DNA of 64,000 nt from a virus. Under the pieces are notes generated by a model. The model saw only the letters and a list, made by a program, of their open reading frames with translations, ran no database searches and had not been told where the DNA came from. The stretch is taken from positions 10,199-74,198 of the IMG/VR virus record IMGVR_UViG_3300045957_000047; one strand, given 5' to 3'. Of this stretch, positions 15,061-59,254 are shown in pieces. Position numbers and translations under genes: made by a program. Within the stretch, counting starts at the first letter, position 1; each line of letters starts with the position of its first letter.

Positions 15061-15266
15061 CTGCTTTGGGTTTATTAGTAGTGCCCATGGTGTGGCTTCT
15101 TTGTCTGGCTCTGATTATGTTCTTGGAAGGAATCAGAGCCAGACAAGTCTATCGAAAGAGAAAAAATAAAGGTCACTTTAAATACTGGGTATTGGTAAAC
15201 GTATTCAGTACAATAACCTTTCTGTGTGCATTACTGCTCAGTATCTTAATTCCTCACTTGGTCTAA
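15057..15266 (+). CDS. small membrane protein (2 TM)
   Basis: Two hydrophobic segments around a basic loop; TTGA coupling. Confidence 0.6.
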   Translation: MTALGLLVVPMVWLLCLALIMFLEGIRARQVYRKRKNKGHFKYWVLVNVFSTITFLCALLLSILIPHLV

Positions 15267-18200
15267 GTACAAGTGATACACCTGCATCCTTTCCCGGTCT
15301 CTTACTTCCTGTAAGTTTCTCTTTTGTGCTTTGGTCGTGTTGTCGTTGATAAACTGGGGTCTGTGTCTTCTGTTTATCGCAACCATCTGTCTCTGCGCTC
15401 TCTCAAAAGAACCTTTGTGTTGCCTGTAGAAGTCACTTTGTTCGATAGCCTGTGCTCCTGCAGTATCTCCGACTTGTTTTAAGGCATTAACCCGTTGACT
15501 GAGTTCCTGCATGCGGTTGAAGTGTCTATAGAAATCGGTACTGACTTGGTTGAAGTCAGAGGCTACAAAGTTTCGAGCAAAGTACAGCCCAGCTTTCTGG
15601 TTGTATGCATAGTCTTCATCTCGGGTAGCGTATTTAATATTCTCAAACGCTGATTCGACCAAATAAGTAATGCTGCCACCAAAAGATCTCATCAAATGCC
15701 TGAGTTTATCCGGGTTCATTTCTGCATACCCATTTCTGGATAGATGTTGAGTGATCTGGTCATACATTTCTTGTTGGCTGTTGTAGCGCACACCAAAAGA
15801 TTCTGTCATGTCCCCCTGACCTGCTCCCACCACATCGGTGTACACCGGGATACCCAGGCCATTGAGATTCACGGCAACTTCGTAAAAGGGTTTAGTCACA
15901 GAGGGCAGGGCGGTACCTATTAAGGCAAGCGTAGGGTCGGCAGCAAAGAGACCAGCTACAGGGAATGGCGACACGTTGAGCGTAGGTTCGGAAGCTGCAA
16001 TCATATTCTCAAACGTATTGTTCAAGCCCTGGTGGCCCAGAGCGTAGCGCATGGCTTGGACACCGGCACTAAACGCAGAAGCGGGTGCTCCGAAACCCAA
16101 ACCAAATTGCAATTTTTGATCACCAAATTGCATGACAAAGTTTGTGGTGTAAAGCTTACCTTCTACTTTAGCCAGCTCATCGATGCCTTCCTCTTCATCG
16201 TAACCGGCAATCATGTTGGCCATGAGATATAGCCCAGCGCCTGCACCAAACGTAATGGCCAGGGTCTCTCCAGCGTAGTCACCCGTCAGTACTGAGTTGA
16301 TCAAAGCGGAGGTACCTACACCTGCTGAGCGTGCGAACGCATAGAAGACAGACAAGGGGCCTGTGATACTGCCGCGTTGCTCGAAGTTGGCCACACTCTT
16401 GGCAAGACCTGCCGCCACATCTTTGGGCTGGCCTTGGGCTTGCAGGGCTTTGTAGTAGGCAAAACGTGACAGGGTATCGGCTACCGAGTTCATGACAGCA
16501 AAGGTTTGATCCAACTGCTGTAGCCTTTTGGTAGCTGAACCGCGTCCAGGATTGACTTGAGACAGATCAGCGAAGCTGTTGGGTTGGCTGTCTTTAAGTG
16601 CTGCCACAAGGGATGTAGGGCCACCCAGTTTGAAAAACTCGTTGAGTTCTGCAATGGTAGATCCTGGTCCTTCCGAAGCCACCACCTCTGCTAAGCGATC
16701 AAACTGGTTGGTCTGCCACAGAGTGATGAAACGTGACACGTCTTTACCGTAATTCAAGCCCCCTTCTGTAAAGGTGTTCATATACTGCCTGAAACCTTGG
16801 CCCCCTTCCTGAACACTGATGTTGTATCCCAGGGTCAGGATATTCCTGATGGCGTCGTAGGGGATAAAAGCCGGGTTACGCCATGTTTTCAGAGAGGCAA
16901 TAAAAGAGGTGAAATCTCCCAGTCCCTGCCCTGCGGAAGTCGTTAGGGTCTCTCGGAATAGCCGGTCGACGGCATCGGCTGTAGCGTTACGCACACCGGT
17001 AATCACATCAGCCCCTTCAGGAGTAGACAGCTGACCCACAATAGCTTGGTCTTGCCCTGGGATATAATAAATCACAGTGCCTTTTGTTCGCCGGGCCATA
17101 GCCCTTTTGAACTCACGACTGTTGGTATCGAACAGCTCAATACCGCCTTTGAACAAGTCTCCACCAAAGCCGTCATCAGCCATGCCATCTCGGTATTCAG
17201 AGGACGCTTTGTTTGCGGCCATGTGGGTGAGTAGGGCCAAGGCATAGTCCCCGGACGTGGACTGTTCAAGAGATCCCATGGCCAGCTGCTGTAGCCCACC
17301 GAACACATCTTGTGCCAGACTCTCCCGGCCTTCAAAGGCTTTGAAGCTTGAGCTGAATACATCGTTACCATAAAACACACTCAAGGCCTCGTCCTCGTTG
17401 TCGGGGTTGAACCCTTTACCGCGCAAAGGCACGTAGTTCTGCCACCCGTAGGCAGCAATCCGATCTTTCAAACTCTGGCTGAACGCACCTTGCCGTTCTC
17501 GTAACGTGTTACTGGCTGCAACTACTTTCTGAGAAGAGGCTGCAATAGCCTCATAGAACTGCAGGTCATTACCTTGGAACTTGCTGAGTACTTGGTCGGC
17601 CTCAGCATCAGTCAGACCCGAACCTTTCCATGACGCCCTTTGCTGGGTGTCGGTGTGGGTGTAGACAATATCCCGGATATCCTGCATGTTCTGAGGAGTC
17701 AGATTCTCCGCCAAAGCATCCCGTTGACTATTGAGGGCAGAGTCATTGAGTTTGACCTGGAGTAAGAACGAGGTCTCGTTACGCTCTTTGGCATGCTTGG
17801 CTGTCATGTACAAACCGGCACTGGTTTTGGCAGCATCGATACTGACACCCAGAGCATTGGCCAAGTCTGCCACAGAGCTGTTCAGCTCCGCCATGACTTC
17901 GAAAAAGGTCATGTCATTACCTTGAGCATCCTGGCCCACGACTACCATGTCAGCATCTTTATTCTTGGCCAGGGCTTCCGCTCGGGAGGCATATAACGCG
18001 CCCAGCGAGTGAACAGAGAAACGCGACTTGAGTTGCTCTACATGCCCTGTGATCAGATCTCGGAGTTCTTGAGGTATTTGCTCGTTGCTCTGAATCTCGT
18101 TGACGACTGCCTGGATACGGTTGTCATCAAAGCGTTTGCGAAACAAAGTCTCAACGACCTGAGTTGTGAATTTAGAATCGGCGATAGCCTGCTGCACAGC

Positions 18201-21200
18201 TCTCCAGGTTTTGCTTTTAAAGAACTGCTCTCGTTTGTTGGGGGATCGAGAGAAGTCTAATGCTGCCTGTGCCTGCCTCTGTGCGAAGTCTCGGAAGTCT
18301 TCGAGTGGAGAGTTTACGGAGCTGACAACCTCACTGCTGCCTACTACGATACGTTCTTGCACGGTGTTTCCAGAGCCATCTCGATAGACGATAGCATCAG
18401 GCTGAGGCCTGGCTGCCCGGACTCGTACAGGTTGGTCCAGTGCTCCTGACTCTCTACCCTGTCGGTTTGCCTCGGAGATCATGGCCATCAAGTCAGCATC
18501 CGATACTTTGTCAAACCATTGAGCAGGTAAGAATCGCTTCAGGTACTTCTTAAACTTGTTGACAATCTGCTTGAGGGTCTTGGCAATGCCTTTGTCTATA
18601 AAAGGACTTTGAGCAAGTTGAGCCAATACCTCATCAGTGAGTTCAATCTGAGAATCGCGATCACCACTCTGGGCTTGAGCAATCAGATTCTGGTAACGAG
18701 TTTCGAAGGTGTTGGTAGGCACATTTTCTCGTAGCAACTCAAGAAGCCCGGTAACACCTCCGCGTGTGCGGAACGTCCGTTGTAGCGTGAGATCGTAGTT
18801 GCCGCCCAGGGATCGTGACAAGCCTCGGTGGAAGAGTTCCTCTGTTAGAACATTACCCACCTCAAAAGCACTCTGAATCTGATCGGCTACCAGGTAGGCG
18901 ACATTGCCGTCTGTGAAACCAGATACAGGAATATCAGGCCTGATGTCAGAAGGTAGGTCACTGGTCGTTTGGACAATTACAACACCGTCCGTTGCTTTCT
19001 TGGGCCACGAGGCTGTGAAGTCGCGTAATGCCTGGTCTACGTCGGCTGTTGAAAACTGTTGGGGCGCAGGTAACCCGTTAAGATCCGCATCGGGGAGAGT
19101 ACGTGTTCCGTCCGGTATGGCCTGCGCCCCAACAGAGCGGGTTAGAACAGGACGAGCTGCCCGTGTTCGTGCTGGGTTGCCGGTATTATTGCCCCCGGCT
19201 TCAGGGGCGTCGAGCTTTTTTGCATTATCAATAGCTTTGAGGTAAGTAGCAACACCTTTGCGAATCGTATTCGCCTCTTTTTCAGTATACGGACCGTCCG
19301 GTTTTTCTTTTAGAATTTTCCGGTAATCCGTAACTGCTTGTAATTTAGAAATACGAGTACGTTTTTTTCTGGGTATCAGCGTAGCATCAGGGTCTTTGTT
19401 TTTACCTGTGTTAGCAAACGTTCGAAACCTCTTGACCGTGTCGGGATCACTGACGACAAACTGACCTTCACTATCTGTATCGGGTGTAAACAGTTCCTCA
19501 AGAGAAATGATGTTGTCTACAGTGGTCTCTTCCTCTTGCAACGGAGGGGCGTCAAAGTCTACTTCGCCTTGTATTTCCGACTCGATTTCTTCTTCGACTT
19601 GTTCTTGGACATTTTCTTCTTGCTGCGTTGAGGCATTAGGGATCTCGGCAAACGGGTTATAGACAGACGCTACTGTATCTTGAAACTCTCTAGGTGTCAT
19701 GTCCTCATTGATTTGAGCAGTCACTTGCTGAGAGAAACTTTGAGCATCTTCAAGAGACAGCCCAGAGTTTAAGGCCATCTGCTCCAGTTCGGAGCCTACA
19801 GATGTGCGGCGTCCCTGAGTCAAGGATGTGGCTTTCTCCAGATAGTCAGCAATGGCTTTCTTTTGAGGTGCTGCCAGTTGATCAAACTCTAAATCAAGCC
19901 TGAAACTATTGACAACACTGGCAGCAGCCGCTCTTCGACGTTGTGCAGGAGTGATCTCGGCAACATCCACCGCAGGGGAGGCACCCAATAAAGGCTTGAA
20001 CGCCGCCCGGATGGATTTGTTGAGGGGCACACTCTCGGGTCGGAACTCTGAAAACTGGTTATCCGCTTCCTGTTGAACTTGAGACAGCAAGTCAGAAGAG
20101 GCTTGCTCGCTAAGCTGTCTTTGGAACTCTATCTCTTGGGCTTGAGCCAGGTTACCCGAACGGACAGCCTCGCTCATCTGACTAAACAGCTCTGCATCTG
20201 TCTGCTGAGAACGAGCCTCTCTACTCTCTAAGGTCGCTTGTCGAGCCACCTGAGCAGACTCTCTACCCTGCTGTACCCTCTCTATCTCATCTCGGATGCT
20301 GTCAGCCAAAGCTTGTCGCTCTTGGGCTTGAGCCAGGTTACCCGAACGGACAGCCTCGGCCATACTCTGAGCTGCTTGCTCAAATTCCAGTTCCTGTTGT
20401 CTTTCTTGTTCTTGTCTTTGCTGGAGCCTTTCTTGTTCTTGTCGCGTCAACTCATCAGAAGCCAGTTGCTGATCCCTACGAGCATCCCTAAATGCTCTCT
20501 CTGAAATACGTGTTCGCAACTGCTCAGTTTGTTCTGCCTGAGTCAGAGGCCTATTAAAATCCAAAGGGTCAGGAGACTGAGGCTCAACTGGAGCGATGTC
20601 AGCACTGGGATTATCCGGGTTGTTGATATCCAGCTCTCTTGATATTCTGCTTTGCTCTCTTTCAGAGCGTACTCTTGCGATCTCAGAAATCAGACTGTTC
20701 TGCTCTTGGGCCAAGCGTTGTAGCCGAGCTTCCCCTCTGGATATAAGATCCTCTTCTGTGTCTCCCGCCTGGCTTCCAGGCAAAGACTGCAGTAAGTTCT
20801 GTTGTTGTTCCTGAGTTCGAGCCTGTGATAGTGCTTCTCTTTGAGCACCTATCTGATCAGCCAATCGAGCGTTGGAAGCGCCTTGCCGAGCATCTAAAGC
20901 AACACTGCCTGCACCCAATGCCCCTCCCAAACCGGCCCCCAAGGGAGCACCTACGGCCCCACTGGCCAAAGCCTGGCGTTGTGCTTCCTGGTTGGTTAAT
21001 ACCTGCCCTACGCTCAGATTGGGATTCTGCTGTGCGAATTGACCTAAAGCCTCACCACCACCTTCAACAAATTCTTGTGCAGCCTCGCCCGTGGCTGACA
21101 CTCCCACACGACCAGCTGCCTGCCCAATAGAGGGCGCTGACGATACAACGGGATTCGCACCCGGCTGGATACGGGCAGGCAATACTTGACCGGCCCTTCG

Positions 21201-22370
21201 ACCCAGGTTACCCAAGGCCTGTTCAGCCACCTGCCCACCCAGAGCACCCGTAAGACCGGCAATGGGTGCTGATATGGCCCCTGCTCCAGCCAGAATCCGG
21301 GCTTGTTCAGTGGTCAGATTTTCATCGACTCCTGAGCCCAAGCCAACCCCTATGGCAGGAGTTGCAGCTGCTGTCCCTTGGATAACACCACCTGTAGGAG
21401 CGGCACGGGTACCCAGGTTTGTCAGTGCCTGACCGGTTCCGGTAGCACCTGCCCGACCTGCCACAGACCCTGCCAAGCGAGCACCTGCACGGGCTGCTCC
21501 GGTGACAGCACCGCCACCCAATGCTGCCCCGGCTGTATTGGCCAAGAGATCTGCTGCGAAGTCTCCATCAGTTAATGTCAATGAGCCTACTTGTCGGGCA
21601 GCATCAAGGAGAGAAATTTTATCGGGATCGTTGTCAGCTAAGCCTGCCCGGCGAATAATTTCAGACGCTTGGAGACTTGCCGCCTCCGAGCCAATATCGG
21701 TAGGGGCTGCGCTTCGAATATCTGAGGCCAATCCGCCTAGTGATTGACCTAAATCTTCAGCCCCGGCGGCACTGGCTGCAATACCGGCAAGTCCTGGAAT
21801 CCCGGCAAGTCCGGTAGCGGCTGCTTTTTTTACACCGTCAAAGAAGGTATCGGCACTCGCTAAGTCTTGTCTTCGATCCGTAGGTACGCTGGTATAGGGT
21901 TGAGCATCGGGGTTTTGCTGTAAGAAATCAGCCTCCTCGGCTGCCAGCACCTGTTTAGCCTGCCGAATGATGTTTCTTTCGAACTCTGTATCTGGATCAC
22001 GCCCGGCTCTTGAGAGTCTTTGCAGCTCCTCATCGAGTTTGAAATCAATAGTTGCCCCCAAGTCACCGGATAACCTGGACAAGTAAGCTTCGTTGTTGTC
22101 CAGTCCCAGATCTGAGTAGATGGAGCTGACTCGTTCGACGGCTAACTGTTGGATTTGTTGCTGCTCAAGCGCCTGTTCATTGGCCTGCCTGATCTGAGAA
22201 GCACTGGGTTGATTGGCCTGTTGAAGTCTCAGGGCTTCGTTCTGTTGAGCAAGGGCCTCGGCAATATCATCCAAGCGTTGATCTTGCCGGATTTGCTGGA
22301 CGGTATTGTCGGTGGCTCCGAAGTCGATAAGTAGTTTGATCTGTTCTGTTGCGTCGTTCGCATTTGCCAT
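15246..22370 (-). CDS. giant internal virion / DNA-ejection protein (large polyvalent protein type)
   Basis: 2374 aa, last late gene; Gly/Ala-rich membrane-like region, degenerate zincin-like LTEELFHRGL, NYVPLRG, NFEQRG..FYAF C-terminal region; no Cys seen. Confidence 0.8.
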   Translation of the reverse strand: MANANDATEQIKLLIDFGATDNTVQQIRQDQRLDDIAEALAQQNEALRLQQANQPSASQIRQANEQALEQQQIQQLAVERVSSIYSDLGLDNNEAYLSRLSGDLGATIDFKLDEELQRLSRAGRDPDTEFERNIIRQAKQVLAAEEADFLQQNPDAQPYTSVPTDRRQDLASADTFFDGVKKAAATGLAGIPGLAGIAASAAGAEDLGQSLGGLASDIRSAAPTDIGSEAASLQASEIIRRAGLADNDPDKISLLDAARQVGSLTLTDGDFAADLLANTAGAALGGGAVTGAARAGARLAGSVAGRAGATGTGQALTNLGTRAAPTGGVIQGTAAATPAIGVGLGSGVDENLTTEQARILAGAGAISAPIAGLTGALGGQVAEQALGNLGRRAGQVLPARIQPGANPVVSSAPSIGQAAGRVGVSATGEAAQEFVEGGGEALGQFAQQNPNLSVGQVLTNQEAQRQALASGAVGAPLGAGLGGALGAGSVALDARQGASNARLADQIGAQREALSQARTQEQQQNLLQSLPGSQAGDTEEDLISRGEARLQRLAQEQNSLISEIARVRSEREQSRISRELDINNPDNPSADIAPVEPQSPDPLDFNRPLTQAEQTEQLRTRISERAFRDARRDQQLASDELTRQEQERLQQRQEQERQQELEFEQAAQSMAEAVRSGNLAQAQERQALADSIRDEIERVQQGRESAQVARQATLESREARSQQTDAELFSQMSEAVRSGNLAQAQEIEFQRQLSEQASSDLLSQVQQEADNQFSEFRPESVPLNKSIRAAFKPLLGASPAVDVAEITPAQRRRAAAASVVNSFRLDLEFDQLAAPQKKAIADYLEKATSLTQGRRTSVGSELEQMALNSGLSLEDAQSFSQQVTAQINEDMTPREFQDTVASVYNPFAEIPNASTQQEENVQEQVEEEIESEIQGEVDFDAPPLQEEETTVDNIISLEELFTPDTDSEGQFVVSDPDTVKRFRTFANTGKNKDPDATLIPRKKRTRISKLQAVTDYRKILKEKPDGPYTEKEANTIRKGVATYLKAIDNAKKLDAPEAGGNNTGNPARTRAARPVLTRSVGAQAIPDGTRTLPDADLNGLPAPQQFSTADVDQALRDFTASWPKKATDGVVIVQTTSDLPSDIRPDIPVSGFTDGNVAYLVADQIQSAFEVGNVLTEELFHRGLSRSLGGNYDLTLQRTFRTRGGVTGLLELLRENVPTNTFETRYQNLIAQAQSGDRDSQIELTDEVLAQLAQSPFIDKGIAKTLKQIVNKFKKYLKRFLPAQWFDKVSDADLMAMISEANRQGRESGALDQPVRVRAARPQPDAIVYRDGSGNTVQERIVVGSSEVVSSVNSPLEDFRDFAQRQAQAALDFSRSPNKREQFFKSKTWRAVQQAIADSKFTTQVVETLFRKRFDDNRIQAVVNEIQSNEQIPQELRDLITGHVEQLKSRFSVHSLGALYASRAEALAKNKDADMVVVGQDAQGNDMTFFEVMAELNSSVADLANALGVSIDAAKTSAGLYMTAKHAKERNETSFLLQVKLNDSALNSQRDALAENLTPQNMQDIRDIVYTHTDTQQRASWKGSGLTDAEADQVLSKFQGNDLQFYEAIAASSQKVVAASNTLRERQGAFSQSLKDRIAAYGWQNYVPLRGKGFNPDNEDEALSVFYGNDVFSSSFKAFEGRESLAQDVFGGLQQLAMGSLEQSTSGDYALALLTHMAANKASSEYRDGMADDGFGGDLFKGGIELFDTNSREFKRAMARRTKGTVIYYIPGQDQAIVGQLSTPEGADVITGVRNATADAVDRLFRETLTTSAGQGLGDFTSFIASLKTWRNPAFIPYDAIRNILTLGYNISVQEGGQGFRQYMNTFTEGGLNYGKDVSRFITLWQTNQFDRLAEVVASEGPGSTIAELNEFFKLGGPTSLVAALKDSQPNSFADLSQVNPGRGSATKRLQQLDQTFAVMNSVADTLSRFAYYKALQAQGQPKDVAAGLAKSVANFEQRGSITGPLSVFYAFARSAGVGTSALINSVLTGDYAGETLAITFGAGAGLYLMANMIAGYDEEEGIDELAKVEGKLYTTNFVMQFGDQKLQFGLGFGAPASAFSAGVQAMRYALGHQGLNNTFENMIAASEPTLNVSPFPVAGLFAADPTLALIGTALPSVTKPFYEVAVNLNGLGIPVYTDVVGAGQGDMTESFGVRYNSQQEMYDQITQHLSRNGYAEMNPDKLRHLMRSFGGSITYLVESAFENIKYATRDEDYAYNQKAGLYFARNFVASDFNQVSTDFYRHFNRMQELSQRVNALKQVGDTAGAQAIEQSDFYRQHKGSFERAQRQMVAINRRHRPQFINDNTTKAQKRNLQEVRDRERMQVYHLYLDQVRN
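20133..20358. repeat. 40-bp exact direct repeat (20133-20172, 20319-20358)
   Basis: ctcttgggcttgagccaggttacccgaacggacagcctcg twice; EAVRSGNLAQAQE. Confidence 0.9.
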
Positions 22371-23506
22371 TATGATCGCCGGTCTTGTAAGATAGGTCTC
22401 ACCGTGTCTCGGGTAAATGCTTGCAAAGCCAACTGTAGAGATTCAAGCTCAGCTTGCCGTAGTCGTCCATCAACACGCTCTTGTGCGTTACTGGTTTGTA
22501 TACGCTGGTTGATGTTAGCACGAGCTGTAGGAACTAAACTGGGCACCTCGGCAGATTGTCCCAACTGTGCCAGCGTAGCAATGTTTTGTTGAATGTTTGC
22601 CGGGTTCACAGAAGCCTGTGCTTGCTGAGCGAATTGGGAAGCCAGTGCCAGGTTATCGTCTACCTGCACAGGGACTTGTAGTTGGATCTGGTCGTTAAGT
22701 CTTCTCAGCTGTAACTGGTCTTGCATCAATTGACCTTGGGCAGCTGATTGAGCGATAACCGCTTGTTGGATCTGTTGGTTGAACGCATCAAGCTGTTGTT
22801 GTCTTTGAGCGTCAGAGGCAATCTGATTGGCTTGAGCGGTGCCTTGAACCTGAGCGGCCAGAGAACTTGGAGGCAGTCCAGCAGGCACGTTCAGAGACTG
22901 CAGTGCCTGGATTTGAGCCTGTTGATCACTGGCAGGCGGTGTGTTCACAAATTGTTGGGGTTGAGCCTGCTCAGCCAGTGCTTGCTGTTCTCTTTGAAAG
23001 GCAGCCTCTCGTTGCCGCGCCTCTATAAAACCCCGCGTCGCGGCATCTTGTGCTTGCTGATTCAGTTGTCTTTGAACAAACCCTTGAGGATCGATGAAAC
23101 TGAAAACATCGTTGGCCTCATCAACTATGTTTCGAGGAGCTTCAGTGGGTTGTTGGAAGCCTGCAAACTCATCAACCGGATTAATATTGTTGCGCTGTCC
23201 AAGAGGTTGGTTGATGTTTAGAGCCGATGGTTGCGGTTGTTGGAAGCCTGCAAACTCATCAACCGGATTGATATTGCCGGTACCATCAGCTTGCCATAAG
23301 AGACTGCGGGCATTCTCTACTCCACGTACTAAACCTTCTCGGGCTTGAACAATACGCAAAAGCCTCTGACCTTCAGCAACACCGTTCTGTCTCTGGTATT
23401 CCTCAAAGGCTTGCCGGGCCAGCTCTTGTTCTTGAGGATCTCCAGACGCTGCTAAGATAGACAGACTGCGAGAGATCTGTTTCTGCTCTTCGGTAAGTTC
23501 TGCCAT
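22370..23506 (-). CDS. putative internal virion (ejection) protein, Gln/Ala-rich
   Basis: 378 aa, TAATG-coupled, no Cys; internal repeat NINPVDEFAGFQQP. Confidence 0.75.
   Translation of the reverse strand: MAELTEEQKQISRSLSILAASGDPQEQELARQAFEEYQRQNGVAEGQRLLRIVQAREGLVRGVENARSLLWQADGTGNINPVDEFAGFQQPQPSALNINQPLGQRNNINPVDEFAGFQQPTEAPRNIVDEANDVFSFIDPQGFVQRQLNQQAQDAATRGFIEARQREAAFQREQQALAEQAQPQQFVNTPPASDQQAQIQALQSLNVPAGLPPSSLAAQVQGTAQANQIASDAQRQQQLDAFNQQIQQAVIAQSAAQGQLMQDQLQLRRLNDQIQLQVPVQVDDNLALASQFAQQAQASVNPANIQQNIATLAQLGQSAEVPSLVPTARANINQRIQTSNAQERVDGRLRQAELESLQLALQAFTRDTVRPILQDRRS
23148..23269. repeat. 35-bp exact direct repeat (23148-23182, 23235-23269)
   Basis: ggttgttggaagcctgcaaactcatcaaccggatt twice, 87 nt apart. 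Confidence 0.9.
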
Positions 23507-24213
23507 TAGTCAATAGTATAGGTAGGTAGGGTGGAGCGGGTAGGCGCTTGAATAGGCTTTCCAGCCGTACTGCCTACTGTAGGCGTTTGGTTTTGCTGAG
23601 CTTGTAGAGCCTGTTGGCTTTGCTGAGTCACCAATCGTTCCAACTCTTTGATTCTGTTCTGGTAATCTATCTCACGCTGTTGTTGGGCAGCCTCGGCTTG
23701 ATTGCCGAACTCTTGTGCAGTAGCGGATGCAGCTGTGCCTGCAAAGGTACCGGGAGCCAGTTGTGGATTGTTTAATGCCAGTGCTTGCTGGATCTGTAGA
23801 TTAGCCTGCTGTTGCAAATAGGGGTTGATTCCGAACCCCAGGCTGTTGATAGCCGGGTTGACTGTAGTGGCCAAGCCTTGTTGTGCTCCAAAGGCCGGGT
23901 TATTTATCGCTGCCGCAGAGACCAGAGGTGTGATGGCAGCACGTTGAGCCACTGCTTGAGTCAAAGCAAACGGATTACTGGTCGCTCCGGCAAAGTTGTC
24001 CAGCCGATCAAGAATGCTGGTACCTTGAGGCTGGTTCTGGAACCCTTGTCGGAACTCCAGGTTGTCAGACGTGTTGAGACCGGTGTTGAATGCATTGAGA
24101 ATGTCTACAAAAGACCGGGCTCGATTGCTGTCGGCAACGGCTGTATTGTTGAGCTGGTTAATGGCAGAATCTCTGCCAGTGCTGAAATCAAAAAGTCCTG
24201 GTAATACGGCCAC
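23506..24213 (-). CDS. putative internal virion protein
   Basis: 235 aa, Gln/Ala/Asn-rich, no Cys; GGAGG RBS, GTG start. Confidence 0.75.
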   Translation of the reverse strand: MAVLPGLFDFSTGRDSAINQLNNTAVADSNRARSFVDILNAFNTGLNTSDNLEFRQGFQNQPQGTSILDRLDNFAGATSNPFALTQAVAQRAAITPLVSAAAINNPAFGAQQGLATTVNPAINSLGFGINPYLQQQANLQIQQALALNNPQLAPGTFAGTAASATAQEFGNQAEAAQQQREIDYQNRIKELERLVTQQSQQALQAQQNQTPTVGSTAGKPIQAPTRSTLPTYTID

Positions 24214-24214: not shown

Positions 24215-27200
24215 TTAGAAACCTCCTCCGGCGAAAGACAGACCTGTGCCTAATCCTACACCACCTTGCCCAAACCCACCCGTTGGAAATGGCGCTGGTT
24301 GATTGTTTTGAATAGCCCCTTGTACAGAGTTTCCGAGCAGACCAAAAGAACTGCCGACGGCATTCTCTGCATTGCCCTGCAACAAACGACTGTTGTCTAA
24401 TACATCCTGTCCATGGATAGCTTGGAGGTAGGACAAATGGTTTTTCTGTAGGAAGTTCTTGGCATACGACAGCATTTCGAAATTCATAGAGTAACTGGCT
24501 TCGTTGGCTTGCATTCCAAAAATCCCTTGATCCAGTCCATGACGAAATAGTCCTCGCATCTCTTGTGCTGCGCCCAGTCCATAACTACCAGCGAGCTGAT
24601 AGCTGTTTCGCCCTTCTCTCATCAGCTCAACGCCGACACCCATGGAACTGATTCCAGCTTTCAGGTGCTCCAAGCCGTTTAACGTCATGCGATTCTCGTA
24701 TTCCAGAGCCTGCTGCAGTTTCTGGTTACCCACCTCTGCTGCCCCTAATCCCATTTGGCTGGCTTGTACGGATGACCCTAAAGCCCCTTGGGTACGATCT
24801 CCGGCAATACGGTTCAGGTTGTGACCTGTCTGAGCAAACTGGTTACCCAATTGGCCGGCACCACTGGCAATAGAGGCGACCTGTGCGTTACTCGATTGAG
24901 CCTGTGCCAAGTAGAACTGACCGAGTTGCGACAATCTTAAGCCGACATCGAAAGCCTGCTGCATGACATCGACCCCTCGATCTTTATTACGCTGAGCATG
25001 CTCTGGCCAGAATCGACCGAGTTGTAACAGGTTCTGACTATCATCCAGAACGTTCTGTACCTGAGCGTTGAACTCACCAGATTCTCGCAATGCCAGCTCC
25101 GGCCAGAAGTGCCACAACTGAACAGTCTGTAACAGGTTATTGATTTGATTCTGTTGCATGTTGGCGGTTAGTCCACCTGAGTTCTGGAACGCATCAATGT
25201 ACACCCGGCCTCGTTCAACTGACTGATTCAACCGATCGAGGAGGGCCGCAGAGGAACTGCTTTCAGCCTGAGTTAGTTCCAAATGCCGGGTCAAAAGTCC
25301 ATCGACGACCTGTAGGCCACCTGATTGCTCCTCGACCATCCTGCGACGAAGGGCTTCGTTGGCTACAAAGCGCCATCTTTGAGAGGCTTCAAATGCGGCC
25401 CCTTCAGACCTGGCTCCCTGATTTTTCAATTGCATACTGGCGGCAAGGAGATGTCCTGACGCATACCGGGATGTACACCGTTCCAGCTCTTCTTGCGCAG
25501 CATCAATGCGATCTCTGACGTGAAGAGCCGCAGGCACCTCTAAGGCATAATCAAAAAGATCAGCCTCCTGAAACACTTTGTCCAGGTATGTCTGAGCATG
25601 CTGTATCCCGGACTCAACGACGGGCAGTACCGTAGCGGCCTGCTTGCCTAAGTCTTCAATGTTTCGTTCCAAGACTTGAAGAGGGTCCATACGGTCCCAG
25701 ACCTTTTCATGGTGCAGCAGGTTGTTGATGTCTGCCGGTAACCAGTTATGGTTATACACCTCGTGAAAGTCTCTGGACTTTTGCTCGAACCACTGCCCAA
25801 ATTTAGTCATGTCTTCGGCAGCAGTCTTACCGGTGAACACCAGCTCTTGGGTGGCCTCAACCTCCCGGCTTCTAAAATGGTCGTCATAAAGACTTCTGTC
25901 CGCATTGGACCACTTGTCAATTTTCTCTAACGACTTATTCAGCCCGTCCAAAAGAGTGCATGCATGCCTAAAATGTTGCATGACCAGGTCACATTCTGAG
26001 TCTCGGTAGATACGTTCAAAAAAATCCTGGTCTTTAACCGCTTGATTCTTGAACCACTCGAAACATCGACCAACTTCCGGGGCCAGATTTTCTGCCTGTT
26101 GAAAAAGGGCAGGGTTCAGAGTCGCCTGCGGATCTCCGTAGCAGCTTTTGAAGATACTCTCGACATGTCGGGTGTTGTCTTCGAACCAACGTACTCGGTC
26201 AGCAATCTTCGGGATCAGCTCTGCAGCAGAGGCCATGGCAGCACGGGCTTGTGGCCCTTCTGAAGATCCGTAGTATTCTCGGTATGTGCTGTCGTCACAC
26301 TGAGCCTTCTGGTGTAACCAGTCACGAAGCTCGCACACGCGGCTGACCATGCACTCAGTCATATTCATCAGCAGAGGAATCATGGACGCTTCCCCAGGCA
26401 GGTGGTGCTGATCAACGTGGTTGTATACACGCTGGGTTTTATCCCTGACCTCTTGTCGCCAGCCGTTGAGATTGTTGGCAGCACAGTTGGCACTGTCAAC
26501 GAAGGCGTTGTAATCCTTTTTGATTGACGGCAGTACGGTTTCTTGCAAGGTGTCGTCGAGGTTCCTTGCCCAGCTCATGGTGTACTCGGAGGTGAACTTG
26601 CCGTTGTCGAGCATCGTGTGTAGCCGGTCAGCCAAGTGTGGAGCTTCTTGGTGCTGGATACCTCTCCAAAGCTGGTAGTACGCATCAAACTCATCGGTTG
26701 CAACTTGACAAGCGTATTGCCCTCGACAGTTGATCATACCAATACGGTCGTTGTGTCCCTCCAGTAACGCAGTCTCGCACTGCTTAACCAAGCCAGGAGA
26801 GTCTTCAGTACCGATCAACGCATCAGAACAGGCTGCCATCAAATTGAAGTTATCGTTCGATGTACAGATCCTGTCCAGGTTCTTGTCTAAGAGCTTATTG
26901 TACAAGTCCAGAGACTCAATCAGGCCATAGATAGCCAACGGAATCTGAGCTTGGTACACCCTCTGCTGCAAACATTTGGCTTTTTTCTCTGTCTTCCACC
27001 AGTCTTCCCAGAGCATGTAGTATTGCTCTTGAGGTGTCTTGCCTTTCAGCTCCAGGTGGGTGACGTTATCGCAGGTGATGTAATCGATTAAGTCACTGAC
27101 CCCCAGAAAGTTCAGAGCTGTGTCGATAAACCCTTCTTTGGGTACCGCATCACTGGCCTCAGCACCATCCCAAGCAGGACAGTATGCGCCCAGTGCGGTG

Positions 27201-28195
27201 AAAGCCCCCCGAGGGAGGATGCCGTCAATGACCAGTTTCCTGCGCATCGAGATCTGCAGAGGGTGGAAGGCGTCGTCCCCGGCGGGGCAGAACAACGTAC
27301 TGCCATCAGCATTGATCGCTCTGTTGGTGGAGTTAATCTGGGTAGGATTGCTTACCGTGTGAGCGGCTACAACAGTACTGTCATTGGTCAAGGCCAGAGT
27401 AGGGAAGCAGAAAAAGTCATCCCCAGCACCATCAGCACCTATCGGTAACGTAGCGTCAGGTTGAGGCAAGACAGTAACATTGCCTTCGTCATCCTCCTCG
27501 TAAGTAATCGTCCCACAAGAATACAAGCGACCGCCTACCTCCGCACGAATAGAGCCTCCAGCAGGTGTGATAAACGGATCATTAAGCTCTGCCAAGCGGT
27601 CTTCGTTATCAGTAATCCATTGTATGAAGCTTTTTGAATCCACCCCTCCCCACGCAAAAGCGTAAGCGTATCCAGGCATACAGAATATGGGATTACCAAA
27701 ATCAGAAACCAGTGGAATGTAGTGTTCTCGGTAAGGCTGGCCAGGTGTGCGCGGTGGGCACGTCGCGTTCGGGTCACCGGTGACAACACAAAGGTTATTG
27801 TTTTCGTCAAAAATGACAGTAGATGCTGTCGGGTCTGCATTGGCGACAATCTTTGTACAGGTGTCCCCGCTGGCATAAGTGATAAAATCAGTGACCTGAC
27901 CGTCGTCACAGGTGGTACGCTCTGTTGTATCTCCCGCTTCGGGGGTGTCTACCAGAGTCTCAGTCTGACAACAAACGGGTTGGTTGTTTATCGACGCCAA
28001 AGCCTCTTGCTCTTCTTCACTCGCTCCACACAAGGGAGTTTGTGCAATGTTCTGAAGAGCCTGACCTTGGCAAGCAGCCAAAGCTTCCATAGCTGCTGTC
28101 TGAGCTTCTATCGCTTCGGTAGTCGCATCTACTGACTTGGTGACAGGATCAGCCAGATCCGGTTTGAGGTTACTAACTGTAGTGCTGCCACCCAT
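24215..28195 (-). CDS. large virion protein with a Cys-rich N-terminal half and 44-aa and 32-aa helical repeats
   Basis: 1326 aa, MGGSTT start, periodic aromatic motifs, Gly-rich C-terminus. Confidence 0.75.
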   Translation of the reverse strand: MGGSTTVSNLKPDLADPVTKSVDATTEAIEAQTAAMEALAACQGQALQNIAQTPLCGASEEEQEALASINNQPVCCQTETLVDTPEAGDTTERTTCDDGQVTDFITYASGDTCTKIVANADPTASTVIFDENNNLCVVTGDPNATCPPRTPGQPYREHYIPLVSDFGNPIFCMPGYAYAFAWGGVDSKSFIQWITDNEDRLAELNDPFITPAGGSIRAEVGGRLYSCGTITYEEDDEGNVTVLPQPDATLPIGADGAGDDFFCFPTLALTNDSTVVAAHTVSNPTQINSTNRAINADGSTLFCPAGDDAFHPLQISMRRKLVIDGILPRGAFTALGAYCPAWDGAEASDAVPKEGFIDTALNFLGVSDLIDYITCDNVTHLELKGKTPQEQYYMLWEDWWKTEKKAKCLQQRVYQAQIPLAIYGLIESLDLYNKLLDKNLDRICTSNDNFNLMAACSDALIGTEDSPGLVKQCETALLEGHNDRIGMINCRGQYACQVATDEFDAYYQLWRGIQHQEAPHLADRLHTMLDNGKFTSEYTMSWARNLDDTLQETVLPSIKKDYNAFVDSANCAANNLNGWRQEVRDKTQRVYNHVDQHHLPGEASMIPLLMNMTECMVSRVCELRDWLHQKAQCDDSTYREYYGSSEGPQARAAMASAAELIPKIADRVRWFEDNTRHVESIFKSCYGDPQATLNPALFQQAENLAPEVGRCFEWFKNQAVKDQDFFERIYRDSECDLVMQHFRHACTLLDGLNKSLEKIDKWSNADRSLYDDHFRSREVEATQELVFTGKTAAEDMTKFGQWFEQKSRDFHEVYNHNWLPADINNLLHHEKVWDRMDPLQVLERNIEDLGKQAATVLPVVESGIQHAQTYLDKVFQEADLFDYALEVPAALHVRDRIDAAQEELERCTSRYASGHLLAASMQLKNQGARSEGAAFEASQRWRFVANEALRRRMVEEQSGGLQVVDGLLTRHLELTQAESSSSAALLDRLNQSVERGRVYIDAFQNSGGLTANMQQNQINNLLQTVQLWHFWPELALRESGEFNAQVQNVLDDSQNLLQLGRFWPEHAQRNKDRGVDVMQQAFDVGLRLSQLGQFYLAQAQSSNAQVASIASGAGQLGNQFAQTGHNLNRIAGDRTQGALGSSVQASQMGLGAAEVGNQKLQQALEYENRMTLNGLEHLKAGISSMGVGVELMREGRNSYQLAGSYGLGAAQEMRGLFRHGLDQGIFGMQANEASYSMNFEMLSYAKNFLQKNHLSYLQAIHGQDVLDNSRLLQGNAENAVGSSFGLLGNSVQGAIQNNQPAPFPTGGFGQGGVGLGTGLSFAGGGF

Positions 28196-28724: not shown

Positions 28725-29208
28725 TAATCAAATCAGCGACGCTACGGGCATGCTCCCAGCCCTGTGACGTGTTGGCCAGAATAGGTGCAATCTTTTTTAT
28801 AAGAAGTTCAGGTAGCCGGTTCTGTACTTGGTACCCTCGACCCATCAAATGCCAGCTGAAATACTCGGCATGGATGATTTTGGCCAGGTTGTTACTGTAT
28901 GTGGCCTCCCACAAATAGGCATTGCCAAACCCGACAAAGGGCGCTTGCATGGCGGCATAGGCCTCGTCGGTCCATTCAATCGGTTTACGCTCCAAGAGGT
29001 TTTGACACAGCACAGACCAGTGAATTACGGAGATAAAGGTGTTGAAAGCATTGGTTGTCATGTGCTTTGCAAACTCATTCAGACCCAGGTTATTTAGAGC
29101 GGGATTCTGATGAGCTGTATCCTGGCTTGCCGGAGTAGGTGTTTGCAAAGTCTCTTGCAGAGCAGTGTCGTCTCCCGCCATCTGTCTCATGTAATCTGCT
29201 TTCTCCAT
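28696..29208 (-). CDS. hypothetical protein
   Basis: 170 aa, TGATG coupling. Confidence 0.7.
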   Translation of the reverse strand: MEKADYMRQMAGDDTALQETLQTPTPASQDTAHQNPALNNLGLNEFAKHMTTNAFNTFISVIHWSVLCQNLLERKPIEWTDEAYAAMQAPFVGFGNAYLWEATYSNNLAKIIHAEYFSWHLMGRGYQVQNRLPELLIKKIAPILANTSQGWEHARSVADLISDPRTYQQF

Positions 29209-30845
29209 CAGCTGTCCCCTTTAATGTTAGCGTAACCTTGGCCATAGTATAAAGCACACATAGGACTGTCTCCGAAAACCTGTAACTGGTAGCACGGCAG
29301 TAACCTACTTCGGATCTTTACAAATCCCTCTTTGAGCTGTTTACTCTGACTCTCACAACCTTCTTTTAACACCGTGATCCTGTTGCCTGGCTGCACTTCT
29401 TTGTCTACATACTCCACACCCAACGTACTGATCTTGTTCAGCACTGAGTCTCTTTGCTCACCTTGCCTCCAACACATGGTCATGTAAGAATCGGCAGCAT
29501 CAAACTGATAGACACCTCCATGGACTACAAAGAAAAGGTCATCACAATGATCAACAAACCAGCAATTGACCTCAAAAGTTAAACTGGTTACATCTGGAGG
29601 TAACAGACCTGAGTCATCAAATCGATAGTCCCAGACCACAATATCTGAGTAACTGCTGACAAATAACCGGCTACGCCACAGGATCAGTTGACTGACTTGT
29701 CCTAACTGCTGCCAGGTATCATCGTCGAAAGCCGCCGTTGAGATAGTTCGGTAATTACCCTGCCTATCAATAGAGACCAGCCCAGTCTCTGAGGCATACA
29801 GTAGCCCGGATGAGGTGTTGACTACGGCAGTACAGTACTGAGGAGAGGGTATTTCTTTAAGTTCCCGAACAGGTCTTTCACTGCTGTTCTTGCAGTCAAT
29901 GTCGTCATCAAGCAGGTATATCCCACCTTTTGTGAATACAAAGACACTGTTGTCACAGACTGCCACATTCTCCACAGACTCTGGGAAATCGTGGTAAGTC
30001 TTCAGGGGGAATCCCCAAGGTTTGTTACGTTCCGAGAAGGCAATAGAGTTCTCCCAGAACACAACCACCGAACCTTTGAAAGTCTCGCCAGCTACACAGG
30101 CACCCATAGCAGGAGGCAGCAGTTCATCGGTCAGTAATGCATTCTGAGGTTCCTGGCACGGAAGTAGTATGATTTGTCTTTCGCATACGTATCCTCGAAA
30201 CACCAGGAACCATTGCTGCTCTTGTAATAGGGGTGTATACCCTTCCTGTACCTGACCCTGGAAGTCAGTCAGTCCTTGACTGCTGTCCCACAAAGATCGA
30301 GACTCATAGATGTTCACCTCTGTCACACCCCACTTATCTTCCGGTGGGGGAGGTAAGTACAAAGACACTGAGGTCTTCGGGTCTACACACACGGATGCGG
30401 ACACACAACTCGCTGGTCCCTCTTCGCAGTCAGTACCATAAGTAATCCGGTACGTTCTCTGCTCTGTGTCAGGTCCGTAGCTGGGTGTGTAGCCAGGGTC
30501 TACCAGCACCTCAGGAGGCTCAGGTACCGGGTATCCCAGATTCTTCCAGTCACCAGAGGATTCAAGACGCTGAACTCTGCCTTGAGCGTTCGAGCGCAAG
30601 AGACTCTTTGGCAGCTGAGTTTTAAAGAATCGGGTCTGGCTACTCGCATGGCCGTACCACTGACCTTCAAACTGTGTGAACGATCTCGTACTGTCTGGTA
30701 ATTTGTGCTTCAATACAGGCCGATGCCAGGGCTCAAAACGACCACTGGCTAAATTCATATTGACTGCTTCGGCAGCAAACTCTATGGGCAGATTACACGA
30801 TTTTGACCGAGGGACCCTACCACGAGGGCGACGAATGGCTACCAC
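29208..30845 (-). CDS. tail nozzle / DNA stabilisation protein
   Basis: AVNMNLASGRFEPW, YRITY...EEGPAS, IAFSE..PWGFP, LLYASETGLV beta-propeller-like motifs; position after the adaptors. Confidence 0.75.
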   Translation of the reverse strand: MVAIRRPRGRVPRSKSCNLPIEFAAEAVNMNLASGRFEPWHRPVLKHKLPDSTRSFTQFEGQWYGHASSQTRFFKTQLPKSLLRSNAQGRVQRLESSGDWKNLGYPVPEPPEVLVDPGYTPSYGPDTEQRTYRITYGTDCEEGPASCVSASVCVDPKTSVSLYLPPPPEDKWGVTEVNIYESRSLWDSSQGLTDFQGQVQEGYTPLLQEQQWFLVFRGYVCERQIILLPCQEPQNALLTDELLPPAMGACVAGETFKGSVVVFWENSIAFSERNKPWGFPLKTYHDFPESVENVAVCDNSVFVFTKGGIYLLDDDIDCKNSSERPVRELKEIPSPQYCTAVVNTSSGLLYASETGLVSIDRQGNYRTISTAAFDDDTWQQLGQVSQLILWRSRLFVSSYSDIVVWDYRFDDSGLLPPDVTSLTFEVNCWFVDHCDDLFFVVHGGVYQFDAADSYMTMCWRQGEQRDSVLNKISTLGVEYVDKEVQPGNRITVLKEGCESQSKQLKEGFVKIRSRLLPCYQLQVFGDSPMCALYYGQGYANIKGDS

Positions 30846-37524: not shown

Positions 37525-37525
37525 A

Positions 37526-51174: not shown

Positions 51175-51176
51175 TA

Positions 51177-53621: not shown

Positions 53622-53632
53622 TTGATGTACTA

Positions 53633-53662: not shown

Positions 53663-53682
53663 CTTAGTTAGAGGAACTTTTC

Positions 53683-56399: not shown

Positions 56400-56427
56400 A
56401 TATTTACCTTCCACCTGAGAATATCTG

Positions 56428-57699
56428 ATGAGTAAAGGTTGTCAAATTCAAGTCATTAACGGGGCTTACGTCTGCGACGTAGGTCAACTTATTGTTTACA
56501 GTGGTTACATTGGTCAAGTCCGGTACCATAACCTCCCCTTAACTACGCTTGAGAAAAATGTAGCCGAAGAGACCTGGATGTCTGCATCACCTGCTGAGAT
56601 AGAGGGAGATGGCCTACTACACCTTACAGCCCCTGGTACCTACCGATTCAACATTGACTGTGATGCTATCAAGGCCACTGCAGTACCTGCTGATGAAGAA
56701 GAGTATATCGTGCTGTGTTATGAAGGCATTAAAGTCTCTGACTGGGGTCAGCTTATCTCTCAACAACTGGAAGCGTTGTGTGAAAAGATAGAAGAGCCTA
56801 AAGCCATCATGGAATGCTTGGCCGAACTTAAACTCTTGACCGCTGCCAACAATAACCTGGTCGCTTTGGCTGGGCTTATGGATCAGCTAAAGGAGCTGTG
56901 CGACAAGCTTCTCAAACAAGCTGAGCAAAATGACGGCATTATTGAAAGCTTGGAAAACTTGGCCAGTGAACTGATCGAATTGTGTGAGAAGGTCGCTTCT
57001 GGCAATGAGGAGCTGGTCTCTTGTTTACAGGACCTGAAAACCTTGCAGGAAACCAGTAACGCATTAGACACTGAATCGATCGCACTGGCCACCGAGGCTA
57101 ACACTCTTGCCATACAAGCCAATGAGATAGCGGAGAAACTGTCAGAGCAGGCTCAAGCTACCTGTGACAAGATTGAAGCGAATAATGCTTTGCTTACGCA
57201 AGCCAATACCTTGGCCGAGGCAGGTAACCAGGCAGCTGAAGATCAGTGTGACAAGATTGAAGCGGGTAATGCTTTGCTTACGCAAGCCAATACCTTGGCC
57301 GAGGCAGGTAACCAGGCAGCTGAAGATCAGTGTGACAAGATTGAAGCGGGTAATGCTCTGTTACAACAATTGTCTGAAAACGGCAGTACAACTGCTGACC
57401 AGATTACTCAGCTGGTAGAGGCCAACTCTGCTGAAAATGCTGCCCTTGAGCAGTGCCTTCAAGACCAGAAAACCTTAGATATTGCCGGAAATAATACGCT
57501 TGAGTCGATCCAAGCGGAGCTTGATCAAATCCGGCAACAAGTAGAAGTACGGACTCACGTCATTGAAGGCTGTCTATTATCCGACCCGGCTGATCCTAAC
57601 TCAGACAAGATCTCTGCCTTTACTGTTGTTGATGACACAGGCACGGCTCTTTTTGCCCCTATTGCTTTGACCTCTCTCGGCTTTGTGGAGTGTTGTTAA
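56428..57699 (+). CDS. coiled-coil virion protein with periodic Cys
   Basis: N-terminal domain paralogous to 40903-41502; 28-aa repeats; ends in ECC. Confidence 0.8.
   Translation: MSKGCQIQVINGAYVCDVGQLIVYSGYIGQVRYHNLPLTTLEKNVAEETWMSASPAEIEGDGLLHLTAPGTYRFNIDCDAIKATAVPADEEEYIVLCYEGIKVSDWGQLISQQLEALCEKIEEPKAIMECLAELKLLTAANNNLVALAGLMDQLKELCDKLLKQAEQNDGIIESLENLASELIELCEKVASGNEELVSCLQDLKTLQETSNALDTESIALATEANTLAIQANEIAEKLSEQAQATCDKIEANNALLTQANTLAEAGNQAAEDQCDKIEAGNALLTQANTLAEAGNQAAEDQCDKIEAGNALLQQLSENGSTTADQITQLVEANSAENAALEQCLQDQKTLDIAGNNTLESIQAELDQIRQQVEVRTHVIEGCLLSDPADPNSDKISAFTVVDDTGTALFAPIALTSLGFVECC
57163..57357 (+). repeat. 84-bp (28-aa) tandem repeat, about 2.3 units
   Basis: CDKIEAGNALLTQANTLAEAGNQAAEDQ starting at 57163, 57247 and 57331. 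Confidence 0.92.
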
Positions 57700-57700
57700 G

Positions 57701-59077: not shown

Positions 59078-59141
59078 TTGAATGTGATACACTCAAGCTG
59101 TAGTCTCTATTATTGAACTACTCCTCCAAGTGGTGATACTC

Positions 59142-59176
59142 CCCTCAGTTGTCTGTATGAAGCTGAGGGATTTTTT
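59142..59176 (+). terminator. Rho-independent terminator of the plus-strand cassette
   Basis: ccctcagtt / agctgaggg stem followed by ATTTTTT. Confidence 0.75.
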
Positions 59177-59182
59177 CAAGGG

Positions 59183-59254
59183 AGGCGCTGGAGAGAATCG
59201 AACCCTCTTACAATGGATTTGCAATCCATCCCCTGACCATTCGGGATCAGCGCC
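59183..59254 (-). tRNA. tRNA-Cys (GCA)
   Basis: GGCGCTG/CAGCGCC acceptor, ATGGA-TTGCAAA-TCCAT anticodon arm, GAGGG-TTCGATT-CTCTC T arm, U73; CCA not fully encoded. Confidence 0.9.

Follow-up and report, generated by a model that had tools for sequence, protein, structure and literature searches.

Uneven distribution of cysteine among the predicted virion proteins of an uncultured podovirus-like phage with a single tRNA-Cys

Gene content of the genome

We analyzed a 64,000-nucleotide stretch of the IMG/VR virus record IMGVR_UViG_3300045957_000047 (the whole stretch is referred to as the window here), which encodes what looks, by its gene content, like a podovirus. Cysteine (Cys) is partitioned among its proteins: a scaffold-like protein and three putative ejection proteins contain none, the capsid and other predicted outer virion proteins are rich in it, and the only tRNA is a tRNA-Cys. 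The window corresponds to bases 10199-74198 of a single 74,198-bp contig. Because both contig ends carry the same 15-bp tandem repeat (unit GGGATTTTTTGAGCT, ∼7-10 copies), this 74,198-bp genome is probably complete; the repeats, located upstream of the window and at window positions 63900-64000, could be a terminal repeat or an artifact of assembling a circular or permuted genome. The sole public run that contains the contig is a sediment metagenome.

In total, 91 open reading frames (ORFs) were called and their Cys counted per ORF, and family scans with Pfam or PHROGs covered ∼70 of them. The plus strand encodes a family A DNA polymerase, an SNF2 helicase, and a DUF927 primase-helicase, while a long minus-strand structural block contains the portal (phrog_332/1216), a scaffold-like protein, the capsid (phrog_267), an adaptor-like protein (phrog_437), and a nozzle-like protein (phrog_511). 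The genome further encodes a matrixin, PAP2-like and GH16 proteins, and three proteins of the collagen-like type. A fiber block is located on the plus strand and a terminase-endolysin block on the minus strand. Genes for a tail tube, sheath, or tape measure were not recognized.

Cysteine-free proteins

The proteins that lack Cys in whole or in part are the following (lengths in amino acids [aa]).

15246-22370, minus strand: giant LPD38 polyvalent protein, a putative virion cargo/ejection protein according to Pfam and its homologues, 2374 aa, 0 Cys
22370-23506, minus strand: putative ejection protein directly upstream of the giant gene, 378 aa, Gln/Ala-rich, 0 Cys
23506-24213, minus strand: putative ejection protein in the same operon as the giant gene, 235 aa, 0 Cys
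24215-28195, minus strand: two-part virion protein, 1326 aa, 29 Cys in the N-terminal 907 aa, none in the C-terminal 419 aa
35510-36547, minus strand: scaffold-like protein upstream of the capsid gene, 345 aa, Gln-rich, 0 Cys

The original prediction had reported from hand counts that the 2374-, 378-, 235-, and 345-aa proteins contain no Cys, and the ORF count agrees. The other 20,058 residues contain 2.09% Cys, and the chance of finding no Cys in 3,332 residues is ∼10^-30.5 (10^-21.8 for the 2374-aa protein alone). By block, the Cys content is 1.92% in the early genes, 2.49% in the late genes without the Cys-free proteins, 1.58% in the fiber block, and 1.61% in the terminase-lysis block. The Cys-free stretch extends further than had been noted, since Cys is also missing from the C-terminal 419 residues of the 1326-aa protein (24215-25474). 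In this protein, all 29 Cys lie within residues 42-907, and the Cys-free remainder is Gln/Ala/Gly-rich and adjoins the Cys-free operon. This suggests an outer domain fused to an ejected-like segment, or a segment that is cleaved off.

The 235-, 378-, and 2374-aa genes are the last of the structural block on the minus strand, convergent with the primase-helicase gene, and relatives have the same layout. In the giant protein, residues 2076-2243 match the Pfam family LPD38 (PF18857) with 43 bits against a gathering cutoff of 27; the 235-aa protein has no Pfam or PHROG match. We regard all three as putative ejection proteins, with their presence in the virion predicted indirectly from homologues and gene position. 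Five database homologues of the giant protein (P0002-P0006; 22 to 43% identity) contain 0 Cys in ∼10,200 aa. Giant homologues (∼22% identity) with the same convergent primase-helicase neighbor were also found at 80 IMG/VR loci, where the giant ORFs contain 3 Cys in 159,867 aa, compared to 1.08% Cys in the flanking ORFs, and the ORF directly upstream of the giant gene contains 2 Cys in 41,198 aa. The giant protein alone as an IMG/VR query returned no loci, nor did an alignment of the close-clade giant proteins in JGI metagenomes. Many of the 80 loci (L001-L080) contain a small ORF of ∼130 to 150 aa with 2 or 3 Cys inside the otherwise Cys-free ejection operon, and its counterpart is missing here.

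We rejected a compositional cause for the absence of Cys. Across the giant family, Trp (0.57%) and His (0.85%) are each only ∼2.5-fold below their level in the flanks, whereas Cys is ∼700-fold below, showing that the exclusion is specific to Cys. The Cys-free proteins of this phage (15246-24213 and 35510-36547) are themselves poor in His (0.5% versus 2.3%), Trp (0.3% versus 1.5%), Met, and Tyr, all of which are oxidation-prone residues, and rich in Gln and Ala.

The 345-aa protein was assigned a scaffold-like role because it is located upstream of the capsid gene. Its family of 22 sequences (23 to 100% identity) contains 3 Cys in 6,449 aa; for the 21 homologues alone (23 to 40% identity), the count is 3 Cys in ∼6,100 aa.

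The same absence of Cys is found in well-known phages. Scaffold gp9 of T7 (307 aa) has 0 Cys, as do gp15 (747 aa) and gp16 (1318 aa), with 1 in gp14 (196 aa), and in P22 there are 0 Cys in gp7 (229 aa), gp20 (471 aa), gp16 (609 aa), and scaffold gp8 (303 aa). Homologues of gp71, gp72, and gp73 of the N4-like phage DEV contain 0.00075 to 0.0055% Cys, versus 0.865% proteome-wide, and for this suppression the authors cite an earlier suggestion of passage via the Dsb-containing periplasm (PMC11445570). The operon described here resembles T7 gp15/gp16, P22 gp7/gp20/gp16, and the Schitoviridae (N4 gp50-52 and DEV gp71-73; PMC11445570) in being a terminal operon for large virion proteins that are near-Cys-free in hundreds of homologues, but differs from the Schitoviridae in that the giant protein is an LPD38 polyvalent protein and not an RNA polymerase. 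The pre-ejectosome of cyanopodophage A4, in which single terminal Cys link consecutive cargo proteins (PMC12002296), has giant near-Cys-free cargo as well, whereas the cargo here is without any Cys, ends included.

The cultured relatives of the giant protein are Bcep22-like Burkholderia phages (Lessievirus; JC1) and Ralstonia podophages, where a homologue is annotated as “DarB-like antirestriction.” The homology to these phages lies in the C-terminal part of the giant protein (∼22% identity). They also have the PHROG families of the adaptor and nozzle-like proteins in common with this phage, carry a lone tRNA per genome, and have a Cys-free giant protein and upstream neighbor: Bcep22 gp75 (4602 aa), gp74 (532 aa), and gp70 (331 aa) all have 0 Cys. 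In JC1, mass spectrometry detected the giant homologue gp69 and its neighbor gp68 in virions (PMC9144972). Differences are that their tRNA is a tRNA-Ser, that their virion proteins are Cys-poor (1 Cys in the 364-aa Bcep22 capsid), and that they are temperate with recombinases, of which none were found here.

We conclude that Cys-free cargo and scaffold proteins follow a general, already published rule for ejected phage proteins that is not special to this phage. The rule also applies to the tape measure protein of phage Milano and to the 80 uncultured relatives, in which the shells contain little Cys. In the papers searched, we found no statement of a Cys rule for the LPD38/“DarB-like” family, and our counts extend the rule to the giant proteins of this family in the Bcep22-like group and their metagenomic relatives. 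In uncultured phages, absence of Cys can mark ejected and scaffold proteins cheaply and from sequence alone, as it does here for a cargo operon that lacks family annotation.

The cysteine excess is limited to the virion module

For comparison, we used five IMG/VR relatives (G001-G005; 91 to 100% complete), selected for common replication genes and the giant gene. On the strand of the giant gene, which encodes the late and structural proteins, the Cys content excluding Cys-free ORFs of at least 200 aa is 2.38% here versus 0.66 to 1.15% in the five relatives, while on the opposite (replication) strand it is 1.88% versus 1.44 to 2.2%. Among late-strand ORFs of at least 100 aa, 10 of 34 contain at least 3% Cys, compared to 0 to 4 of 28 to 43 in the relatives. 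The orthologous replication proteins have similar counts, with 6 Cys in the SNF2 protein (4 to 7 in the relatives) and 15 in the primase-helicase (11 to 19). Given that these orthologues match the counts of the relatives, the excess is located in the virion proteins, as the original prediction had supposed from this genome. A uniformly Cys-rich proteome was rejected, since the replication genes of the relatives are equally rich and only the virion module differs.

At the orthologue level, the comparison is confined to replication genes and the giant protein, and the head and neck proteins had no BLASTP matches in the five complete relatives. In the relatives, the late strand contains 0.4 to 0.7% Cys overall, versus 1.4 to 2.2% on the replication strand, and the group seems by default to have little Cys in its virion genes. 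The Cys-rich virion module, in contrast, is specific to the phage's own clade. Taken together with the statistics above, the partition of Cys is under selection and not due to chance. This part of the earlier idea of a Cys-partitioned, disulfide-armored virion is real, and its proposal that ejected proteins stay Cys-free also stands, but as the general rule described above.

Cysteines of the capsid and other outer proteins

The Cys-rich virion proteins are as follows.

29208-30845, minus strand: nozzle- or head-closure-like protein, 545 aa, 16 Cys (phrog_511, E = 1.4e-26)
30839-31411, minus strand: neck-region protein, 190 aa, 8 Cys (listed for its Cys count)
31389-31736, minus strand: 115-aa protein, 9 Cys (7.8%), with Cys close to both ends (Cys count and sequence)
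31733-32380, minus strand: adaptor-like protein, 215 aa, 10 Cys, at residue 4 and near the C terminus among others (phrog_437, E = 4e-13)
33704-34450, minus strand: “decoration-like” protein, 248 aa, 10 Cys (role from its position beside the capsid gene; no family match)
34472-35488, minus strand: major capsid protein, 338 aa, 9 Cys (phrog_267, E = 1.3e-7)
39353-40903, minus strand: collagen-like protein, 516 aa, 17 Cys (Pfam Collagen, E = 4e-35)
40903-41502, minus strand: fiber-anchor paralogue, 199 aa, 8 Cys (37% identity to the N terminus of 56428-57699)
42572-43075, minus strand: collagen-like protein, 167 aa, 6 Cys, with a CC pair near the C terminus (Pfam Collagen)
43196-44668, minus strand: collagen-like protein, 490 aa, 12 Cys, with an N-terminal CC pair (Pfam Collagen)
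44678-45100, minus strand: 140-aa protein, 8 Cys, with a C-C-C end (Cys count and sequence)
56428-57699, plus strand: coiled-coil fiber protein, 423 aa, 16 Cys, with a C-C end (from its sequence)

Earlier hand counts for the capsid (9/338), 33704-34450 (10/248), 31733-32380 (10/215), and 31389-31736 (9/115) were confirmed, while the 7 Cys given for 44678-45100 had to be corrected to 8/140.

The capsid protein, a candidate for the HK97 fold, aligns by tblastn to annotated Rhizobium phage capsid proteins with 24% identity over 95% of its length, and its neighbors in atlas capsid clusters carry Phage_capsid_4 or Gp10A-like. A profile search of the PDB with the capsid gave no match. A homologue search with the adaptor-like protein recovered the query alone. 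Searches with the capsid alignment found no loci in GTDB genomes and JGI metagenomes and one weak locus in IMG/VR. In an alignment of 14 capsid sequences (43 to 75% identity), each contains 9 to 17 Cys in ∼336 aa (11 to 17 in the homologues), in contrast to a median of ∼0.2% Cys in the capsids of cultured phages (preprint 10.64898/2026.07.03.736451). Cys is the most conserved residue type of the alignment, ahead of Gly: 7 of the 9 Cys of the capsid encoded in the window are invariant, versus 24% of all columns (Fisher P = 8e-4), and 11 columns hold Cys in at least 12 of the 14 sequences. An invariant vicinal pair lies within the motif K-G-C-C-P. Moreover, 12 of the sequences contain both Cys 95 and Cys 318, whereas P0016 and the capsid encoded in the window lack both, and the pairs 41/196 and 43/259 also covary.

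The placement of Cys in the virion block differs from that in the remaining proteins. Within 6 residues of a chain end, virion-block proteins have 23 Cys versus 10.7 expected (P = 0.0007), while non-virion proteins have 5 versus 11.7 expected. Residues around Cys in the virion block are of above-background polarity, whereas the five relatives show the opposite, with more hydrophobic surroundings (P = 0.004). Several of the collagen-like and fiber proteins have CC or CCC at one end, the repeat units of the 423-aa coiled-coil fiber each contain a Cys at the same position, and the 516-aa collagen-like protein contains G-C-C-G between Gly-X-Y tracts. The C-terminal cystine knot of type III collagen has the form G-P-C-C-G. 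The likeness to it, a Gly-flanked CC beside Gly-X-Y tracts, is a motif resemblance only; the phage proteins may form interchain bonds.

The fiber paralogues at 40903-41502 (minus strand) and 56428-57699 (plus strand) have in common an N-terminal domain of ∼110 aa with 37% identity and four aligned Cys. From these alignments, they probably share a virion-anchoring domain and differ distally.

Many CC and CxxC motifs had also been reported in the fibers and collagens. This holds marginally for CC (12 in the virion blocks versus 6.9 expected, P = 0.05) but not for CxxC, of which there are 6 versus 6.9 expected. CxxC is instead enriched in non-virion genes (9 versus 3.7 expected, P = 0.012), which suggests zinc ribbons there.

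Disulfides, free thiols, or metal sites

A disulfide-networked virion has been solved for the Agrobacterium myophage Milano, which contains 1.4% Cys overall and 2.4% in its structural proteins and in which cryo-electron microscopy revealed a disulfide network through capsid, neck, collar, and sheath, with stability lowered by dithiothreitol (DTT) (PMC10491603). Our recount from the Milano genome gave 10/465 Cys in the capsid, 16/503 in the sheath, 4 to 5% in baseplate proteins, and 0/778 in the tape measure protein. Milano (and 7-7-1) thus resembles the phage described here in the Cys density of its structural proteins (2.4% versus 2.4 to 2.5% here), in the conservation of Cys among close relatives, and in the partition itself. 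Given that Milano was solved with the same partition, a disulfide-armored virion is a known kind. The two phages differ in that Milano has a contractile tail and unrelated proteins and its bonds were seen and tested with DTT, while the present phage is known from its genes alone; the Milano capsid is also less Cys-dense than the homologues of the clade described here (11 to 17 in ∼336 aa).

By analogy with Milano, this phage is likely a new, independent member of the disulfide-braced virions. A Cys-braced shell is likely, with bonds predicted from the virion-confined excess, the conservation of Cys, its paired gain and loss, its placement at chain ends, its polar surroundings, the G-C-C-G motif, and the Milano precedent. 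To this extent, the cross-linking of outer proteins put forward in the original prediction has evidence in its favor.

Several observations weigh against disulfides. There is no preference for even Cys counts, a possible sign of disulfides, as 17 of 34 virion proteins have an even number. Virion proteins show no excess of CxxC and a marginal one of CC. No thiol oxidase, Dsb-like, or thioredoxin gene was found in the ∼70 ORFs scanned. The sediment from which the phage originates may be anoxic, which makes spontaneous oxidation uncertain. In models of gut phage capsids, conserved Cys are mostly buried free thiols (preprint 10.64898/2026.07.03.736451). An AlphaFold2 model of the capsid from the 14-sequence alignment (predicted local distance difference test score of 51) is too poor to show a bond or a metal site.

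The sediment origin, the buried and isolated Cys of the gut phage preprint models, the lack of an even-count preference, and the lack of a phage thiol oxidase in the scanned ORFs would fit an alternative in which the outer Cys are free thiols used for packing or folding, or simply cheap in a reduced, sulfidic habitat, and form no covalent cross-links. We consider this unlikely: the enrichment is limited to the virion module while replication genes match those of relatives, the residues next to Cys exceed the background in polarity, which those in relatives do not, and Cys crowd at chain ends in virion proteins only. Furthermore, some Cys are gained or lost pairwise, and the CC pairs in the collagen-like trimers resemble known interchain knots.

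Even less probable, in our estimation, is that the outer Cys coordinate metal ions (Zn, Fe, or Cu/Ni from the sediment), which bridge subunits or protect the particle in place of disulfides. The invariant capsid Cys cluster at positions 157, 170, 178, 233, and 234 could be read in this way, as could a possibly reducing habitat and an 11-unit His-Gly repeat in the 490-aa collagen-like protein. But the classical CxxC motif is not enriched in virion proteins and is enriched in small non-virion proteins, and disulfides account better for Cys that are gained and lost in pairs and for single Cys located at chain ends. The His-Gly repeat itself, located near the N terminus right after the CC pair, may be a metal-binding tract.

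A lone tRNA-Cys at the end of a late block

The tRNA gene and the late genes next to it are the following.

59181-59254, minus strand: tRNA-Cys with anticodon GCA (ARAGORN; Rfam RF00005 with 51.2 bits versus a threshold of 29)
59701-62079, minus strand: late genes upstream of the tRNA, comprising the large terminase (60445-62079), an 88-aa membrane protein, and a Peptidase_M15 endolysin (59701-60171)

The terminase block matches phrog_2 and phrog_17373/894, and the endolysin matches Pfam Peptidase_M15_3. The tRNA lies at the 3′ end of this minus-strand terminase-endolysin block. It is a full-length match to model positions 1-71, and its last base is U. A U at the discriminator position is an identity element for cysteinyl-tRNA synthetase.

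ARAGORN identified this one tRNA in the window and no further ones when run on all 74,198 bp. The claim of a lone tRNA-Cys therefore holds, and the many other tRNAs elsewhere in the genome that had been named beforehand as evidence to the contrary were not found. Relative to kin, Cys is the most overrepresented amino acid, ranking first of 20 with a 2.5-fold excess over all ORFs, and its codons TGT (266) and TGC (153) are both read by the GCA anticodon. None of the five complete relatives, with their Cys-poor virion genes, has a tRNA. We rejected the idea that the tRNA is the remnant of an attachment site as unlikely, since the tRNA is full length and the Pfam or PHROG scans of ∼70 ORFs revealed no integrase.

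The proposal that the tRNA meets a late demand for Cys finds less agreement across genomes. The original prediction had called for a test of the correlation between tRNA-Cys and Cys content across relatives, and none was seen in a separate set of 80 IMG/VR loci that carry a similar tRNA-Cys, a data set of low power in which some loci may be prophage edges. Those with the tRNA-Cys as their only tRNA (n = 7) contain 0.36 to 1.47% Cys, and those with several tRNAs (n = 37) have a median of 1.29% Cys (range, 0.3 to 2.4%). Milano has no tRNA, and the relative G005 has 1.7% Cys and no tRNA. The Bcep22-like phages each have a lone tRNA-Ser (PMC9144972), and possession of one tRNA, whatever its type, may just be widespread in this wider group.

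The absence of a tRNA in Milano, a solved disulfide-rich phage, the IMG/VR contigs that have a similar tRNA-Cys without being Cys-rich, and the tRNA-Ser of the Bcep22-like phages would all be expected if the tRNA-Cys is unrelated to the Cys-rich virion and was acquired by chance, helps with codon choice relative to the host, or is a spare copy that escapes a host anti-tRNA nuclease. The same can be said of a search of GTDB representative genomes with a pattern derived from the tRNA (anticodon arm, T-arm, and acceptor-3′ motifs, with intervening bases free), which gave no match. By blastn against cultured phages, only the tRNA arrays of large phages were matched. This alternative must reckon with a tRNA that matches exactly the amino acid most overrepresented relative to kin and whose anticodon reads both Cys codons, with the lack of tRNAs in the five complete relatives with Cys-poor virions, and with a full-length tRNA in a genome where no integrase was found; we rate it as a serious possibility, at slightly less than even chances.

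That the tRNA supplies the late Cys demand is then a matter of roughly even odds, on circumstantial grounds: the tRNA looks intact, is the sole one, is located at the end of a late block, and is absent from the five complete relatives with Cys-poor virion genes, but Milano lacks a tRNA, and IMG/VR contigs with a similar tRNA-Cys are not Cys-rich. If the link is true, this phage would clearly illustrate how a tRNA can be selected for amino acid demand rather than codon bias.

Proposed explanation and significance

Combining these results, we propose a virion with two classes of proteins, Cys-free ones that leave the particle and disulfide-braced outer ones, supplied by the tRNA-Cys, an explanation to which we give an even chance as a whole. 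The first class would comprise the scaffold-like protein, the three proteins of the terminal operon (235, 378, and 2374 aa), and the last 419 aa of the 1326-aa protein. These are kept Cys-free, and we infer as the likely reason that thiols would be oxidized in the stored particle or by the Dsb enzymes of the host periplasm, which would prevent both passage through the tail channel and refolding. The second class would stay outside and comprise the capsid, the capsid-adjacent protein, the adaptor, the neck proteins, the nozzle-like protein, and the collagen-like and coiled-coil fibers, which have gained conserved Cys in this clade alone (2.4 to 2.5% Cys in outer virion proteins versus 0.7 to 1.15% in relatives). 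Their Cys would most likely form disulfides between and within subunits after release into an oxidizing medium, as in Milano, with metal bridges as a less likely alternative. The tRNA-Cys would most likely provide more Cys-tRNA while the Cys-dense late proteins are made, which is the weakest step of the scheme. A cystine “chainmail,” in which invariant capsid Cys including those of K-G-C-C-P link adjacent capsomers, chain-end Cys tie neck, decoration, and collagen-like fiber proteins into a single covalent shell, and the tRNA-Cys pays for it, appears doubtful to us as a complete account.

The two-class explanation leaves current concepts unchanged, since each half of the pattern has published precedent. 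What it points to is that, besides Milano, a second and independent lineage has heavily Cys-braced virions, in this case a podovirus, with 10 to 20 times the median capsid Cys of cultured phages. Cys-braced virions could be useful for understanding and engineering the robustness of particles.

Other features

Located among the head genes (36775-39393 and 39353-44668, minus strand) is a module reminiscent of an extracellular matrix, with the PAP2-like protein, a matrixin M10 protease, the GH16 protein, and the three collagen-like proteins. The PAP2-like protein scores 26.2 bits, slightly below the Pfam cutoff of 27.2; that it could oxidize thiols, if it is a haloperoxidase, is pure speculation.

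Small non-virion proteins with 4 to 6% Cys and frequent CxxC pairs are encoded at genome bases 792-3180 and at window positions 3611-4733 and 6664-6879. These are probably zinc-ribbon proteins, and their pattern of Cys is unlike that of the virion proteins.

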